DNA of 64,000 nt from an uncultured Oscillospiraceae bacterium (GTDB taxonomy: Bacteria; Bacillota; Clostridia; Oscillospirales; Oscillospiraceae), in assembly GCA_964429705.1 (NCBI GenBank), contig CAYSDG010000002.1, forward strand, positions 5,520-69,519, given 5' to 3'. Of the stretch, positions 45,924 to 49,954 are shown one piece after another. The first letter of the stretch is position 1; each line of letters begins with the position of its first letter. Position numbers and translations under genes: made by a program. The notes beneath the pieces are model-generated. The model was given only the letters and a program-made list of their open reading frames with translations, had not been told where the DNA came from and made no database searches.

Positions 45924-47192
45924 TTGTATCAAATCTTTTTCGACGAATTGAGCAACAAGATGTACCCCAGCACCCAGCTGCACAGCTTCGGCGTCAACGG
46001 CAAGATCTCCGGCAGCGTCAGCGCCATCGGCGAGATGGGGAACGGCATCATCGGTGTCATCCACGGACCTATGGGCTGCGCGTACCACTACCGCTACTCC
46101 GTCCGGCGCAGGCATCAGCCGTTTTACTCCCTCCTCAGCTCGGACCTGACGGAGCAGGACATCATCTTCGGCGGCGAAGAAAAGCTGCGGCAGACCATTC
46201 TGGATGCCTGGCAGCGCTATCATCCCCGGTGGATCTTCATCATCCCCACGCCGGTCAGCGATGTGCTGAACGAGGACATCCAGTCTGTGGCCGCCGAGCT
46301 GCGCCGGGAGGGCATCCCCGTCACCGCCATCCAGTCGGAGCTGTTTTCTCACCGGGACAAAAACTTCAACCGCAACCGACTGAAGGAGCTGTCCCTGAAA
46401 AAGATCACCGGCGACAACCGGCTGGAGCTGGAGCTGAAGGGCTGCGGCTTTACTGAGGCACTCTACTCCCTGGTGGAGCAGGTCATGCAGCCGCAGGAGA
46501 AGCTCCCGCGCAGCATCAACATTGAGACCATCAACTGGGGCAGCGAGGGGCGCATGGTTCTGCGGGAGATGGAGGAGTTCCTCTCCCGATGCGGCATCTC
46601 CGTCAACTGCTGGATCCCCAGCAGCGACATGGCACAGCTGGCCGCCGCCCCGGCAGCGGAGCTGAATCTGGTCCGCCGCGGCATGCAGAGTGCCCCCTTC
46701 ACACTGAAACTGTACGCCAGGGAGTTCGGTGTCCGTATCAGCTCCATCTGCGTGATCCTGACAGACGATCTGCGCCGCAACATGGGCTATACCCCCGAGG
46801 TCGAGACCCGCATGGTGGAGCGCATCCAAGATGCCATCCGGCTTTATGCTCCCGAGGCATCGCTGGTGTGCAATCCCAGCCGCCAGGAGCTGGAAGCGAT
46901 CTTCGCTGACGCTGATGCCGTTGTGGGCACCGACGATATTACCCTGGAGGGGCTGGGCGCTCCCCTGATCCCCGCCTCCAGTCTGACATACTCCCTCAGC
47001 TTTCCGTCCTATGTGCGCAATCTGCACCGACTGCGCCGCCGACTGGAAAACTGCAGCCAGCGCGACCAGCTGCTGCTGGGCCGCATGTCCTTCTCCACCG
47101 AGCAATACCCCCGATACGACAGCCCAGACACACGGGCGGGCCGCGAAATGTGGCGGCGCATGTGGCTGGAGCGAAAGGAGGAACCGCAATGA
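45924..47192 (+). CDS. Nitrogenase component-1-like protein, NifD/NifE-like (divergent)
   Basis: Family blocks [11 protein letters not shown] and [28 protein letters not shown] sits where NifD/K have T-C, and [11 protein letters not shown] sits where NifD has LNLVHCYRS. Start proposed at TTG 45924 (RBS AAAGGAG 8 nt upstream); the alternative is ATG 45960. Confidence 0.7.
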   Translation: [422 protein letters not shown]

Positions 47193-48378
47193 AAACTTCA
47201 TCCGGATGCAAGCTGCTGGGCGCACAGCAGGCCTTCACCGGTATCCGGGATGCCGTTGTGCTGCTCCACTCGGTCGTCGGGTGCAGCTTCGGCACCATGG
47301 CCTTCCATTTTGCTGCCTGTCATATGACAGAGGTGCGGCAGACCTGCACCGTGATCAGCGACAGCGATGTGGTCTTCAGCGGAGAGGCCTCCGTGGAGCG
47401 GGCGCTGGACAGCATTGCCCAGCTGTATGCCCCCGCCGCTGTTTTTCTGGTCACCGGGTGCGTCAGCGACATTATTCAGGACAACATCTCCACCGTATCC
47501 CGCAGCTTTCAGGAGCGCACCGGGATCCGGGTGATCCCCCTGGAGGCGGCCGGATACCGCGGCGATATGAACGACGGCTTTGAGGCGGCCATGGCCGCTC
47601 TGGCCGACGAAATGCAGCCCCAGTCCCCCGCCTCTGTCCCCACCGTGAATATCATCGGCTTCGGTGCCGATGACCCCCGGCTGCAGTCCGACCTGACCGC
47701 GCTGGAGGAGCTGCTGGCGGGTAAGGCCCAGTTGGGCACCGTCTTCTCCTCCTGCACCATGGAGGCATCCGCCGCGCCCCCCGCGCCGGGCTGAATCTGG
47801 TCTTTGGCCGCGGCACTGTCCTGGCCCAGGAAATGGAGCGCCGCTTCGGTACCCCCTACACCTGTCTGGACTACCCCTGCGGCCTGACCGGCGCAAAGGC
47901 GCTGTGGAGCTGTCTGGAGCAGCAGTTTGGACTGGACTTTTCCGCTGAGGCCGATGCCTTCGCCAAACAGACCGGCCAGAGTGCCGCACCGGCCTTCGGC
48001 TATCTGCAGGCGCTCTACGGCATTCCGGCAGCAGTCATCGCCGCAGGCCCCCGCGTGCGGGGGATCAGCGCCTTTCTGTCCCGAGAGCTGGGTATGGAGG
48101 TATAGGTGGCCGCGCCGCGGGAATCTGCCCGTGACATAGAGAACATCTACGATCAGGTCCGCCGCACAGAGGCGGCGATCCTCTTCGGCTCCTCCTTTGA
48201 GCAGGAGCTGGCCGACGAGATGCACATTCCCCTGGTGCGCTGCGACTATCCGGTGTTCGACCGGGTCTGTCTGACCCATCGGCCGTATATCGGCCCGACA
48301 GGTACACTGTGCCTGATTGAGGACATTCTAAACGAAGTGATGCTTACCAGGACCCGGAAAGGAGCGCTGTATCAATGA
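47189..48378 (+). pseudogene. Nitrogenase component-1-like protein, NifK/NifN-like, interrupted by one frameshift and one in-frame TAG
   Basis: GCKLLGAQQAFTGI, LLHSVVGCSFG, DVVFSGEASVE, VTGCVSDIIQDNI. Three consecutive track ORFs (47150-47794, 47833-48105, 48106-48378) together rebuild one ~396-aa protein. Confidence 0.75.
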
Positions 48379-49160
48379 AAAGGATCTGTGTTTACGGCAA
48401 GGGCGGTATCGGCAAGTCCACCACAGTGGCAAATGTCGCCGCCGCCATGGCCGAGGATGGACTGCGGGTAGCGGTGGTAGGATGCGATCCCAAGGCTGAC
48501 ACCACCCGCTGTCTGATGGGGCGTAAGATCCCCACCGTTCTGGAGCAGCTGATGCACTCCGGCGGAAAAGAGGTGGCCTTCACCGGCTATCGCGGCATTC
48601 TCTGCATGGAATCCGGCGGCCCGGAGCCGGGCACCGGCTGCGCCGGTCGGGGCATCGCCTCCGCCCTGCGTGAGATCCAGAGCCACGACCTGCTGAAGGA
48701 CATGGATGTGGTGCTGTACGACGTGCTGGGCGACGTGGTCTGCGGCGGCTTCAGCATGCCGCTGCGGGAGGGCATCGCCGAGGATGTCTATCTGGTGACA
48801 ACATCGGACTTTATGGCCATGTACGCAGCAAACAACATCTGCCGCGGCATCGCCAAATATGCCAAAGACGGCGTGATCCGCCTGTCCGGCCTGATCTACA
48901 ATGCCCGCAGCGGCCGGGACGACCCCGCCTGCGTTGCCCAGTTCGCCCAGGCCATCGGGACCGAGGTGGCAGAGCATCTGCCTATGAGTCAGGACATCAG
49001 CCGCGCGGAGCTGGAGCGGAAAACCGTGGTGGAGCTGTTCCCCGACAGCGACGCCGCCCGTCACTTCCATGCGTTGGCCCGCCGGATGATGGAGGAGCAC
49101 CCCCGCTGCATCCCCCAGCCTATGAGCGAGGAGGCGCTGGAAGCACTGTGCCGCCGATGA
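48375..49160 (+). CDS. NifH/BchL/CfbC-family ATPase (nitrogenase iron-protein-like)
   Basis: Walker A [11 protein letters not shown]. 4Fe-4S ligand contexts GTGCAGRGI and [10 protein letters not shown]. ATGA overlap with the upstream ORF. Confidence 0.9.
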   Translation: [261 protein letters not shown]

Positions 49161-49954
49161 CAACCCGCCTGCAGGAGCATCCCTGCTTTTCCACCAACGG
49201 AAGCTGCGGCTTTGGCCGCATCCACCTGCCGGTAGCCCCCCGGTGCAACATCCAGTGCGCCTTCTGCGACCGGCAATATGACTGCGCCAACGAATCCCGC
49301 CCCGGGGTGACATCCGCTATTATCTCCCCCCAGGAGGCCGCTGCCCGAACGGCAGAGGCCATCCGGCGGGAGAGCCGCATCCGGGTGGCCGGTATCGCCG
49401 GACCGGGCGACTCGCTGGCCAATCCCGAGACGCTGGAGACCCTTGCCCTGCTGCGGCAGCAGCTGCCGGATCTGATACTGTGTCTCAGCACCAACGGCCT
49501 GCTGGTAGAGCAGTATATCGACCAGCTGGCAGCGCTCCGGCTGGATACCATCACCATCACCATCAACGCTTTTTCGGAAGAGACCGCCGCCAGACTCTAC
49601 ACCGCTGTGCGCTGGAACGACCAGCCGCTGCCCACCTCTGAGGGGCTTCCACTGCTGCTGGCGCAGCAGCGAAAGGCTCTGCGCCTGTGCGCACAGGCCG
49701 GTATCGCCGTAAAGGTCAACACCGTTCTGGTCCCCGGCATCAACGACGGAGAGATCATCCATATTGCCCGGCAGGCCGCCCAGGCGGGTGCTGTCCGGAT
49801 GAACGTGATGCCGCTGATCCCATGCGGAGCCATGGCGGCCAGCAAAGCCCCCACCGCACAGCAGCTTCAGGATGCGCGCGCTGCCGCAGGACAGTATATC
49901 CGGCAATTCACCCACTGCCGTCAATGCCGGGCAGACGCCTGCGGTCTGCTGTGA
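49157..49954 (+). CDS. NifB-like radical SAM protein (SAM domain only, no NifX extension)
   Basis: EHPCFS...[31 protein letters not shown] and C-terminal [11 protein letters not shown]. ATGA overlap with the NifH-like stop. Confidence 0.85.
   Translation: [265 protein letters not shown]

Follow-up and report, generated by a model that had tools for sequence, protein, structure and literature searches.

The window analyzed here, a 64,000-nucleotide stretch of an uncultured Oscillospiraceae genome, contains a four-gene nitrogenase-like module that includes a bona fide NifB-type enzyme, and both component-1 genes of this module are inactivated in this genome. The explanation that we favor, with a probability of about one half for the whole, is that the module is a cobalamin-riboswitch-controlled operon for an uncharacterized nitrogenase-like (NFL) reductase system, that the intact system is an ATP-driven reductase which, when B12 is limiting, acts on a tetrapyrrole, corrinoid or cobalt chelate taken up by an importer, and that a decaying remnant of it persists in this lineage.

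The nitrogenase-like module

The module consists of co-directional plus-strand genes: gene 1, labeled D-like in the initial annotation (45924..47192; TTG start, 422 aa), gene 2, labeled K-like, a pseudogene (47189..48378), an intact gene for a NifH-like Fe protein (48375..49160; PF00142, 323.9 bits) and an intact gene for a radical SAM protein of the NifB type that lacks a NifX domain (49157..49954). The Pfam matches are Oxidored_nitro (PF00148) in each of the first two genes, in gene 2 on a reconstructed 396-aa protein, followed by Fer4_NifH and Radical_SAM. Together with the NCBIfam matches, they agree with the initial annotation in its recognition of a nitrogenase-like module with NifB, and the ATGA start/stop overlaps that it described are located at 47189, 48375 and 49157.

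By sequence criteria, the fourth gene can be assigned as a genuine NifB-type radical SAM enzyme: the match to TIGR01290 has an E-value of 1e-82, with MoaA a distant runner-up (2.7e-15), and residues 3-264 align with the solved NifB 6y1x (E 2.4e-72). All the NifB motifs quoted in the initial annotation, the C-terminal one included, were found, and HPC, RIH, CNIQCxxC, LCLSTNG and HCxQCRADA are kept in the NifB-type proteins of 30 family members. The absence of a NifX domain from a protein of only about 265 aa, noted previously, holds, but it is not unusual, being normal in minimal NifB proteins; the matching solved archaeal NifBs have 288-309 aa. The Fe protein has the expected GKGGIGKST P-loop and both cluster-Cys contexts and scores 340.7 bits with the TIGR01287 nifH model, under the cutoff of 394; in comparisons with PDB, it is nearer to NifH (E 2.5e-74) and MarH (E 4e-69) than to BchL (E 4e-49).

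B12 control and gene neighborhood

Upstream of the module, the intergenic region has a cobalamin riboswitch on either side, the two being divergently oriented. The one that controls the plus-strand operon (45604..45795; RF00174, 84.1 bits, gathering score 31.5) lies just downstream of a sigma-70-like promoter (45562-45590, TTGACA-17-TATGCT), whereas its minus-strand counterpart (45235..45453; 72.7 bits) controls the divergent operon, for which the promoter and terminator scans yielded a promoter-like site (45492-45464) and a terminator-like hairpin of 17 bp (45197-45158). As in the window, a same-strand RF00174 match precedes the operon in 18 of 19 related loci, which span Bacillota, Actinomycetota and Chloroflexota, so the B12 repression that had been proposed for this module is borne out as a conserved feature. 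B12 riboswitches also govern B12-independent isozymes, and consequently, the regulation by itself is no proof that the system serves B12 supply.

Downstream of nifB, with no strong terminator intervening in the terminator scan, lie genes for a tandem-duplicated substrate-binding lipoprotein with two Peripla_BP_2 domains (50074..52404, plus strand; two stretches matching PF01497), a CobN-type large chelatase subunit (copy 2; 52565..56323, plus strand; PF02514, 1173 bits; TIGR02257, 861 bits against a cutoff of 822) and two ABC proteins, each a fusion of membrane and ATPase domains (56345-58066 and 58050-59870, plus strand; PF00664 and PF00005 in each). Binding proteins, the CobN subunit and the ABC proteins would share a transcript with the NFL genes, which encode a pair of paralogous component-1 subunits, the NifH-like ATPase that donates electrons, and the NifB-type enzyme. 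On the minus strand, the divergent B12-controlled operon begins with another Peripla_BP_2 lipoprotein (43954..45093; PF01497, E 1.4e-20); farther along this strand are copy 1 of the CobN-type subunit (40134..43925; PF02514, 1160 bits; TIGR02257, 873 bits), an ABC ATPase (39286-40137; PF00005), an ABC-2 permease (38531-39289; PF01061) and a CbiA/CobB-type a,c-diamide synthase (37163-38518; PF07685 with PF01656). Past the two ABC proteins, also on the minus strand, a ChlD/CobT-like AAA+ and VWA subunit (59954-61942) and a ChlI/CobS-like AAA+ subunit (61890-62897), which as a pair match PF07728, PF17863, PF13519 and PF01078, bring the two CobN genes up to a full class I chelatase set.

Intact relatives of the module are present in over 30 species, the majority of them Oscillospiraceae and Lachnospiraceae from the gut. 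A search at E<=1e-30 yielded 97 clusters (50% identity), among which only family members match over the full length, and the family comprises 33 loci in a one-genome-per-species collection, with the D-K-H-B arrangement conserved and gene 2 intact in most of them. An ABC importer almost always adjoins the operon (in every locus with enough flanking sequence), of the Opp/Nik type in 16 loci and of the Peripla_BP_2/FecCD type in 13-14; the binding proteins differ too much from those with solved structures for the ligand to be deduced. CobN, CbiA and hem genes adjoin the module in a minority of loci only: the window, L030 and L038 have CobN, the first two together with ChlI/ChlD (in L030, CobN-ChlI-ChlD are encoded upstream of the module, and a pair of ABC proteins like that of the window follows it), and in L047, hemACDBL-sirC is directly upstream. 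TonB receptors are found in L042 and L049. Among the classified neighbors in 34 loci, there are no sulfur or methionine genes, and all these loci have chelate- or peptide-type importers; a SAM riboswitch that adjoins L020 is that of a DUF1538 gene separate from the module.

Inactivation of the component-1 genes

The inactivation of each component-1 gene went unnoticed in the initial annotation. Gene 1 of the window is identical to the allele P0001 and differs from the 501-aa intact allele P0002 solely by an in-frame deletion of 237 bp, or 79 codons. The junction is a 13-bp repeat (46668-46680), direct repeats CTGGTC(C/T)GCCGCG bracket the deletion, and more than 12 residues invariant in the family, from W255 to L293, are lost, including the segment aligned with the cofactor-pocket strand of NifD. 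The motif LNLVRRGMQ, which had been contrasted with LNLVHCYRS of NifD, is the scar of this deletion (the intact allele has LNLVRRVRW); the point that it was meant to make survives nevertheless, given that the equivalent of Cys275 is a conserved Arg in the intact family. Gene 2 is not a single open reading frame: three-frame translation shows that one nucleotide is missing between 47762 and 47763, which shifts frame 2 to frame 1 and leads to a stop at 47792-47794, and a GAG codon has become an in-frame TAG at 48103-48105. The reconstructed product of 396 aa matches PF00148 over the full length (230.8 bits). In the sister lineage, both component-1 genes are intact, and gene 2 (396 aa, L043) has GCGGAC and GAG at the two lesion sites.

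It is highly improbable that the module of the window still functions, with the lesions either being assembly errors or tolerated through a split subunit, programmed frameshifting, TAG read-through or a shortened gene 1 product. The gene 1 deletion does keep the frame, H, B and every downstream gene are intact, and high GC3 persists in the gene 2 fragments. However, the split of gene 2 is identical in six independent assemblies, and the lesions recur in 5 to 6 independent metagenome assemblies; gene 2 has two unrelated lesions, neither of which is present in the nearest lineage; the gene 1 deletion removes invariant residues; neither pyrrolysine machinery nor an extra tRNA was detected within the window; and destructive deletions arose independently in other lineages, as in Flavonifractor sp. 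An306, where a deletion fused gene 2 to nifH. The decay in the lineage of the window would have begun with gene 2, through the 1-nt deletion and the nonsense codon, and gene 1 would have followed, losing its 79 codons by slippage between the 13-bp repeats.

Cluster ligands and subunit assignment

Alignment of gene 1 with Azotobacter vinelandii NifD (hhalign) places C52 opposite Cys88, P110 opposite Cys154 and R252 opposite Cys275, in line with the earlier observation that the D-like protein lacks canonical P-cluster and FeMo-co cysteines, and pairs R61 with Arg96 and R254 with Arg277. Gene 2 aligns with NifD over almost its full length, with C7, C32 and C91 opposite Cys62, Cys88 and Cys154, and gaps opposite Cys275 and His442. 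The pair thus aligns with four of the six P-cluster cysteines, and intact relatives retain all three alpha-type cluster cysteines in gene 2 and one in gene 1; equivalents of the cofactor ligands Cys275 and His442 are missing from both subunits, yet NifB is conserved. By alignment, then, three cysteines from gene 2 and one from gene 1 are the predicted 3+1 ligands of a [4Fe-4S] cluster, as in NifEN, DPOR and Isr. An enzyme of this type would show just such a pattern, which would account for the cysteines seemingly missing from gene 1. The D and K labels are misleading functionally, because gene 2 has the alpha-type set, whereas gene 1 retains just one cysteine, the equivalent of the bridging Cys: in its ligand pattern, gene 2 is alpha/NifE/BchN-like, and gene 1, beta/NifN/BchB-like.

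The best NCBIfam and PDB matches of both subunits are NifE and NifEN, with nifE model scores of 68 and 114 bits (cutoff 505). The CfbD model TIGR03282 scores 41.6 bits (cutoff 268), gene 1 has a long alignment with ChlB, and MarD matches gene 1 over the N-terminal ~100 residues only.

Proposed function of the intact system

In intact relatives, scarcity of B12 would open the riboswitch, and the co-transcribed ABC importer, of the Opp/Nik or BtuF/FecCD type, would take up a metal chelate or tetrapyrrole-type compound. The Fe protein with ATP would then pass low-potential electrons to the inter-subunit [4Fe-4S] cluster, held by three cysteines of gene 2 and one of gene 1, and the substrate would be reduced in an arginine-lined pocket at the place of the FeMo-co site. 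The chemistry we prefer is reduction of the macrocycle of an oxidized B12 precursor or corrinoid, which would give entry to the cobamide pathway, by analogy with the action of DPOR, COR and CfbCD on their tetrapyrroles, with CobN/ChlI/ChlD and CbiA, where present, contributing metal insertion and amidation. The characterized tetrapyrrole-reducing NFLs (DPOR, COR and CfbCD) all function without NifB (PMC13474568), so that a simple tetrapyrrole-reductase model leaves the conserved NifB unexplained; it may build an extra complex Fe-S cluster on non-canonical ligands or may have been repurposed. In addition, a Peptococcaceae locus has the potential for its own uroporphyrinogen synthesis, which makes precursor salvage alone a weaker model.

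A role in corrinoid chemistry had been raised in the initial annotation next to that of a Mar-like C-S bond reductase, and it fits the locus context better, although the role itself remains conjectural. Conceivably, the electrons go not to a macrocycle but to a metal, namely, the cobalt of a corrinoid that has been imported or newly metallated (for instance, from Co(II) to Co(I) before adenosylation), or are used for reductive cobalt release from an imported chelate. The conserved B12 riboswitch, the adjoining Nik/Opp-type and BtuF-type importers, and the cobaltochelatase-type CobN/ChlI/ChlD in the window and L030, with CobN in L038, are all compatible with such activity, but most loci lack CobN, NifB is no better explained, no NFL is known to reduce a metal centre instead of a bond, and corrinoid Co(II) reduction, in the known cases, does not require an ATP-driven nitrogenase-type system; we consider this variant unlikely. 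De-chelatase activity is possible for CobN homologues, with HmuS as an example (PMC12583661), and is likewise compatible with this variant. Under the Mar-like alternative, an imported methylthio compound would yield methanethiol, which O-acetylhomoserine sulfhydrylase would turn into methionine, a route around B12-dependent MetH under B12 scarcity. B12 riboswitch control of B12-independent methionine synthesis is known, the Fe protein is almost as near to MarH as to NifH, Opp-type importers occur in 16 loci, and, as in marBHDK, H, D and K come with a NifB-type gene (PMC13474568). Nonetheless, MarD has Cys270/His429 and the full P-cluster set (PMC13474568), whereas neither subunit here has Cys275/His442 equivalents, so the defining ligands of Mar are absent. 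With the MarD match confined to the N-terminus of gene 1, with the L020 SAM riboswitch serving a separate gene, and with Peripla_BP_2/FecCD transporters, TonB receptors, CobN/ChlID, CbiA and hem genes as neighbors in place of sulfur metabolism, a Mar-like reaction is decidedly unlikely. Less plausible still is that the component-1 pair is a NifEN-like maturase that, with NifB and NifH, the partners of NifEN in the FeMo-co assembly line, builds a complex Fe-S cluster that an enzyme encoded elsewhere would use, and is not itself a catalyst. The top matches and the 3+1 cysteines would suit such a scaffold, but the NifE L-cluster Cys (the NifD Cys275 equivalent) is replaced by Arg in gene 1 and falls in a gap in gene 2, the nifE scores are far under the cutoff, a client enzyme is encoded in none of the loci, and importer co-transcription and B12 control point to catabolism or salvage.

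Comparison with known systems

The ATP-driven reductase that we favor would resemble DPOR (BchLNB), COR (BchXYZ) and CfbCD, which combine an ATP-dependent Fe protein with a catalytic component holding one inter-subunit [4Fe-4S] cluster on 3+1 ligands and, like some of the present loci (hemACDBL-sirC, CobN/ChlID chelatase, CbiA amidase), are associated with tetrapyrrole genes; the combination of CobN/ChlID, CbiA and NFL parallels the chelatase, amidase, NFL order of F430 synthesis. Unlike them, the present system has a conserved NifB, which is dispensable there, its Fe protein is far nearer to NifH than to BchL (1e-74 versus 4e-49), and the model scores are far under the cutoffs. Isethionate reductase, Isr (IsrBHDK, nitrogenase-like Group IV-F, Rhodobacter capsulatus), likewise has four genes (radical SAM with H, D and K) and 1+3 cysteines (equivalents of D Cys88 and K Cys70/95/153) that predict a [4Fe-4S] cluster, with no Cys275/His442 equivalents (PMC13474568). 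However, IsrB, with 13.8% similarity to NifB and BciD as its nearest relative, is no NifB relative (PMC11423573), in contrast to the true NifB partner here, and Isr has a sulfonate/taurine gene context and is induced by sulfur limitation, as opposed to B12 riboswitches and chelate-type importers. The available part of the orthologue tables in the Isr paper includes neither Flavonifractor nor Intestinimonas.

The methylthio-alkane reductase MarBHDK (Group IV-C) shares the B-H-D-K set with a NifB-type maturase and a very similar Fe protein (E 4e-69) but differs in its P-cluster and L-like cluster on MarD Cys270/His429, both ligand sets being missing here, and in its sulfur regulation and context, as against B12. 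NifEN, with NifB and NifH, resembles the present system in sequence, cysteines and partners, whereas the L-cluster Cys is missing here, scores are far under the nifE and nifN cutoffs, and there is no nitrogenase in the B12-regulated, importer-linked locus. Group VI NflHDK of Elusimicrobia similarly shows divergent D/K, at most four of six P-cluster cysteines and no FeMo-co ligands, and a tetrapyrrole substrate or a role in tetrapyrrole cofactor synthesis has been proposed for it (PMC13474568; bioRxiv 10.1101/765248); it differs in that the genomes, those of groundwater Elusimicrobia, Gracilibacteria and Myxococcales, lack NifB, the neighbors are many other radical SAM genes, and riboswitch or importer association is unreported. 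The two CobN genes of the window resemble Bacteroides BtuS1/BtuS2 and the HmuS de-chelatase, CobN homologues of gut anaerobes that lie beside binding proteins and transporters under B12-type regulation (PMC6460266, PMC12583661), but no nitrogenase-like genes occur there, and the window adds ChlI- and ChlD-like motor subunits and a CbiA-type amidase.

We found no published description of an association between a nitrogenase-like operon and B12. Many gut anaerobes appear to possess an uncharacterized nitrogenase-like system induced only by B12 scarcity, which would be an unexpected link between nitrogenase-type Fe-S chemistry and the supply of B12 or cobalt.

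Layout of the locus

Two divergent sigma-70-like promoters lie between 45.2 and 45.8 kb of the window, and a cobalamin riboswitch aptamer (RF00174, gathering score 31.5) lies downstream of each: one on the plus strand at 45604-45795 (84.1 bits), that is, on the coding strand and upstream of the nitrogenase-like (NFL) module, and one on the minus strand at 45235-45453 (72.7 bits). On the minus strand, a very strong, GC-rich 17-bp hairpin followed by a T-run (45158-45197) separates the riboswitch from the first gene and is probably the riboswitch terminator, namely, its expression platform. 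The plus-strand operon opens with gene 1 (45924-47192) and gene 2 (47189-48378), paralogs (hhalign 99.7%) that both belong to Oxidored_nitro (PF00148), followed by gene 3, coding for a NifH-family Fe protein (PF00142, 323.9 bits), and gene 4, coding for a radical SAM protein. The initial annotation read these genes as a four-gene module in the order D-K-H-B, joined by ATGA start/stop overlaps; the order stands, as do the overlaps, at 47189, 48375, and 49157, but gene 2 is not an open reading frame and gene 1 carries a deletion.

A terminator scan detected no strong terminator 3' of gene 4, and the plus-strand operon continues with a tandem-duplicated Peripla_BP_2 lipoprotein, a CobN (52565-56323), and two fused ABC proteins. 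The lipoprotein (50074-52404) is 776 aa long and has the Peripla_BP_2 domain twice, and its halves share the stretch 'DGQLIVDHEE.LQYA..F.MTHYKGGYISFQ'. The minus-strand operon encodes a Peripla_BP_2 protein, a second CobN (40134-43925), an ABC-2 transporter, a CbiA/CobB-type a,c-diamide synthase (37163-38518), and a thioredoxin. Both CobN paralogs are full length and score above the TIGR02257 cutoff. At the 3' end of the plus-strand operon, in convergent orientation, ChlD-like and ChlI-like AAA+ genes occupy 59954-62897 on the minus strand, which completes a class I chelatase set in the neighborhood. With the CbiA-type synthase, this set is of the 'late-insertion' type, is governed by B12 riboswitches although its host is an anaerobe, and is reminiscent of the Bacteroides BtuS/HmuS de-chelatase loci. 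Pfam scans of the remainder of the window revealed no nifE/N, nifV, metE, metH, or sulfhydrylase genes.

Two further features of the window are worth recording. A low-GC island at 28000-32903 (52% against about 62%), which may have been acquired horizontally, encodes a 1301-aa BspA-type leucine-rich-repeat protein (LRR_5, six copies), and two adjacent paralogs of ~800 aa (15581-17992 and 18347-20737) display an unusual architecture, a fusion of HTH, cupin, and AMP-binding (acyl-CoA synthetase-like) domains.

Lesions in component 1

The frame of gene 2 changes after position 47762, and an in-frame TAG follows at 48103-48105. An intact, 396-aa gene 2 is present in a sister lineage (L043) whose gene 1 is 90% identical; relative to it, a single base is missing from the window (ATGGCGGAC -> ATGG-AGGC), and a GAG codon has become TAG. 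Gene 1 lacks 79 codons (237 bp) compared with the intact 501-aa allele (P0002) and is identical in the rest, with the two alleles sharing 99.99% identity across the surrounding 10 kb. The lost segment had been flanked by 13-bp direct repeats, CTGGTC(C/T)GCCGCG, and a gap between such repeats is the signature of slippage. More than a dozen residues that are invariant in the family are gone with it, and the "LNLVRRGMQ" motif, which the initial annotation had set against the FeMo-co Cys275 position of NifD, turns out to be the deletion junction.

The lesions are identical in independent short-read assemblies and therefore real: five samples carry the gene 1 deletion, with gene 2 split wherever the contig extends there, and a sixth has an intact gene 1 next to an identically split gene 2. 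To judge from this distribution, gene 2 was inactivated first and gene 1 truncated later, the latter deletion being apparently polymorphic. An intact pair of Oxidored_nitro component 1 subunits, found in related loci, is missing here, so that the copy in the window is a pseudogene remnant, its annotation as a working enzyme is unwarranted, and continued function of this copy is very improbable.

Decay of the module recurs elsewhere. In the isolate Flavonifractor sp. An306 (L011, 3590-4185), a deletion joins gene 2 at codon ~47 to nifH at codon ~115, an inactivation independent of that in the window. In other assemblies, gene 2 (L048), nifH (L012), or gene 1 (members of the P0022 cluster) is split, through a frameshift in L048 and L012, and part of these cases may reflect faulty assembly. 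That the module has decayed repeatedly in several Oscillospiraceae lineages suggests that cells with ample B12 can do without it and fits an accessory function.

Fe protein and NifB

Gene 3 encodes the NifH-family Fe protein of an NFL system, with a GKGGIGKST P-loop and both cluster-cysteine contexts (PDB NifH, E 2.5e-74). The assignment of gene 4 as a bona fide NifB-type protein is borne out: TIGR01290 is the best-matching family (E 1e-82; the next, MoaA, 2.7e-15), the alignment with the solved Methanothrix NifB runs end to end (E 2.4e-72), and the refuting outcome named in the initial annotation, clustering with non-NifB radical SAM enzymes, accordingly does not apply. The radical SAM CxxxCxxC motif, the N-terminal HPC, the His, the LCxSTNG Cys, and the C-terminal CxxC are all present; across 30 members of the family these ligand motifs are kept, and they match the solved NifBs column for column, and a NifB-type gene occurs in 29 of the 34 loci. 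The score against TIGR01290, 278.2 bits with a cutoff of 343.65, covers model positions 8-276 of 441, the NifX-like part being absent. The lack of a NifX domain, noticed already in the initial annotation, is normal for minimal NifBs and is shared by the solved functional archaeal enzymes.

Cluster ligands of component 1

Both component 1 families were aligned by hhalign with the A. vinelandii NifD sequence, verified to be exact against the PDB. Gene 1 residues C52, P110, and R252 fall at the positions of NifD Cys88, Cys154, and Cys275, R61 and R254 at those of the pocket residues Arg96 and Arg277, and N25, by ungapped extension, at Cys62. Gene 2 aligns over almost its full length (residues 3-379 on 58-463), with C7, C32, and C91 at Cys62, Cys88, and Cys154. 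Four of the six P-cluster cysteines (alpha 62/88/154, beta 70/95/153) are thus kept, three in gene 2 and, in gene 1, only the Cys88/95 equivalent. Neither FeMo-co ligand, Cys275 or His442, appears in the alignments: the place of Cys275 is taken by Arg252 in gene 1, and gene 2 is gapped exactly at both. The module accordingly departs from NifDK-type nitrogenases in P-cluster as well as FeMo-co ligands.

The predicted two-subunit complex provides 3+1 cysteines. In NifEN, this arrangement reportedly holds a single [4Fe-4S] cluster, and DPOR likewise holds one in a 3+1 arrangement, with Asp replacing the fourth Cys. By its ligands, gene 2 is the alpha/E/N-type subunit and gene 1 the beta/N/B-type subunit, an assignment that removes part of the paradox raised in the initial annotation, a D-like subunit without canonical cluster/cofactor cysteines, and leaves the NifB puzzle in place. 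A true NifB next to subunits without any known L- or M-cluster ligand is a real puzzle, and the cofactor question is sharpened to what NifB makes for such an enzyme. Two invariant cysteines have no NifD counterpart, gene 1 C174 and gene 2 C53. Equivalence of Cys174 to NifD His195 was considered and ruled out, given that hhalign places Cys174 in a family-specific insertion. In a Foldseek search of the PDB, the AlphaFold model of the intact gene 1 protein (pLDDT 85.8) matched the generic nitrogenase alpha/NifE/MarD/ChlB fold at a TM-score of about 0.5 and 15-20% identity, values that do not tell these groups apart.

Among the characterized NFL enzymes, the tetrapyrrole reductases DPOR, COR, and CfbCD have curated models (BchN/B, BchZ, CfbD, BchL/X, CfbC) against which all scores are far below the cutoffs (BchB, 52 and 77 bits against 490; CfbD, 42 against 268; CfbC, 322 against 402). 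Isethionate reductase (Isr, Group IV-F), as described in a review, has the same 3+1 cysteine pattern in IsrDK and, as here, no FeMo-co ligands (PMC13474568). IsrB, its radical SAM partner, is BciD-like and unrelated to NifB (PMC11423573), and the true NifB partner sets the present family apart from Isr.

Distribution and gene context of the family

A scan of one genome per species yielded 33 loci, and a Desulfobacter locus was added by protein search. The hosts are mostly gut Oscillospiraceae (Flavonifractor plautii ATCC 29863, Intestinimonas massiliensis, Dysosmobacter, Bianquea) and Lachnospiraceae, the others being Peptococcaceae, Tissierella, Phascolarctobacterium, the actinobacterium Propioniciclava, and a Chloroflexota MAG. 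In the genome-collection scan, where the window's own species was not among the matches, its closest named relatives were Oscillospiraceae at about 60% identity. The four-gene set is kept across the loci, in the order D-K-H-B or a variant thereof, with gene 2 a single ORF in most. A profile search of 1.84 billion representative proteins recovered 97 clusters at E<=1e-30; past about E 1e-45, the match is limited to the N-terminal ~110 residues, and because full-length matches stay within the family, it is small and well separated. The family proteins bear the database name "nitrogenase component 1".

The remotest full-length relatives include archaeal proteins (Methanophagales and other Euryarchaeota). 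On one archaeal metagenome contig (L050, 1-12684), distant gene 1 relatives form three tandem NFL sets of D/K pairs and NifH-like genes, without NifB; UbiE-type SAM methyltransferases and a FecCD/ABC transporter are encoded in between. In the Desulfobacter locus (L042), a UbiE-type methyltransferase is located between the transporter and nifB.

Regulation is conserved as well: Rfam scans found a same-strand cobalamin riboswitch (RF00174) in 18 of 19 related loci, either immediately 5' of gene 1 or 5' of the transporter genes that precede it, and in the exception (L030), the sequence upstream of the first gene extends for just 203 nt. A co-directional Opp/Nik-type system (SBP_bac_5 and OppBCDF) lies directly upstream in 16 of the 34 classified loci, a Peripla_BP_2/FecCD/ATPase importer accompanies 13-14, and TonB-dependent receptors accompany three. 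When the sequences of the Opp-type and Peripla_BP_2 binding proteins were compared with the PDB for a hint of the ligand, the only matches were distant ones to a mixture of proteins that bind peptides, sugars, or Ni, or none of any help. L030 repeats the set seen in the window (CobN-ChlI-ChlD, binding protein, D-K-H-B, two fused ABC genes), CobN adjoins gene 1 in another locus (L038), and in a Peptococcaceae locus, the module is preceded by hemA, hemC, cobA-hemD, hemB, hemL, and sirC. In one Oscillospiraceae locus, methylmalonyl-CoA mutase and MeaB follow the module. A cobalamin riboswitch lies immediately 5' of methylmalonyl-CoA mutase and MeaB genes in L016 (14727-14900); both are B12-dependent, which makes them an unusual target for a B12 riboswitch.

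Functional interpretation

These findings speak for an enzyme that cells require under B12 shortage and whose substrate is brought in by chelate-type transporters. We put at roughly 0.5 the probability that the family is a reductase serving the supply of B12, cobalt, or a precursor, of which the window holds a decayed copy. As to the chemistry, we tentatively favor, at less than even odds, the reduction of an imported oxidized tetrapyrrole or corrinoid that feeds the cobamide pathway, on three grounds. To our knowledge, all characterized NFL enzymes with a 3+1 cluster reduce tetrapyrrole macrocycle bonds, the cluster of Isr, which cleaves C-S bonds, being only predicted; conserved arginines line the position of the FeMo-co pocket in gene 1 and would be apt for binding a polycarboxylate; and the chelatase, amidase, and NFL genes of the window mirror the logic of F430 synthesis.

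Other readings are less probable. We consider metal-centered reduction or cobalt release, akin to the corrinoid reductase put forward in the initial annotation, unlikely. The other option offered there, a methylthio-alkane reductase (Mar)-like route via methanethiol, has in its favor that the Mar cluster, too, includes a NifB-type maturase. However, MarD Cys270 and His429 bind an L-like cluster, in addition to a P-cluster, whereas the equivalent positions here are non-ligands, and MarD (9d9u, 9fmg) matches gene 1 only over residues ~35-141. Moreover, Mar has a sulfur/methionine context and sulfate-responsive regulation, in contrast to the B12 riboswitch here, and the sulfur and methionine genes sought on behalf of this option are absent among the classified neighbors of the 34 loci, which makes it improbable. 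A SAM riboswitch beside L020 controls an unrelated DUF1538 gene, with Rnf genes after it. A NifEN-like assembly scaffold would accord with the 3+1 cysteines, but the scores fall short of the nifE and nifN cutoffs (nifE, 68 and 114 bits against 505), and the position of the E-subunit L-cluster Cys is occupied by Arg or a gap, so that we regard it as still more improbable.

Neither the favored reduction of a tetrapyrrole or corrinoid nor any of its rivals fully explains NifB. A more speculative version, which we hold to be possible although somewhat doubtful, is that of a NifB-dependent NFL enzyme in the B12 or cobalt economy of gut anaerobes, which would carry a carbide-type Fe-S cluster on novel ligands and, under cobalamin shortage, would reduce a tetrapyrrole, corrinoid, or cobalt chelate taken up by the cell. 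The equivalents of Cys275 and His442 would not be used in such an enzyme, and the invariant gene 1 Cys174 and gene 2 Cys53 are the candidate ligands. If this is true, nitrogenase cofactor chemistry would for the first time be tied to corrinoid metabolism, and no earlier NFL family would have had a riboswitch that names its physiological signal.

A 2026 review of nitrogenase-like enzymes identifies as the main obstacle that gene context is of little help for the uncharacterized groups, where it sees no more than a loose connection with sulfur metabolism or tetrapyrroles; it lists Groups IV-D, IV-E, and VI as uncharacterized and mentions no riboswitch, CobN, or corrinoid links (PMC13474568). Full-text searches of the open-access literature found no paper connecting nitrogenase-like genes with a cobalamin riboswitch or CobN. 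The present family may be one of the unnamed Group IV clades, and it comes with functional handles: a cobalamin riboswitch before the operon in nearly all species tested, a dedicated importer beside the module, and, in some genomes, a full CobN/ChlI/ChlD chelatase with a CbiA-type amidase. The isolates Flavonifractor plautii ATCC 29863 and Intestinimonas massiliensis carry intact copies in their genomes, which makes it feasible to study growth, induction, and enzyme activity if the strains can be obtained and cultured. For gut ecology, the system could represent a new route for scavenging B12, a precursor, or cobalt.
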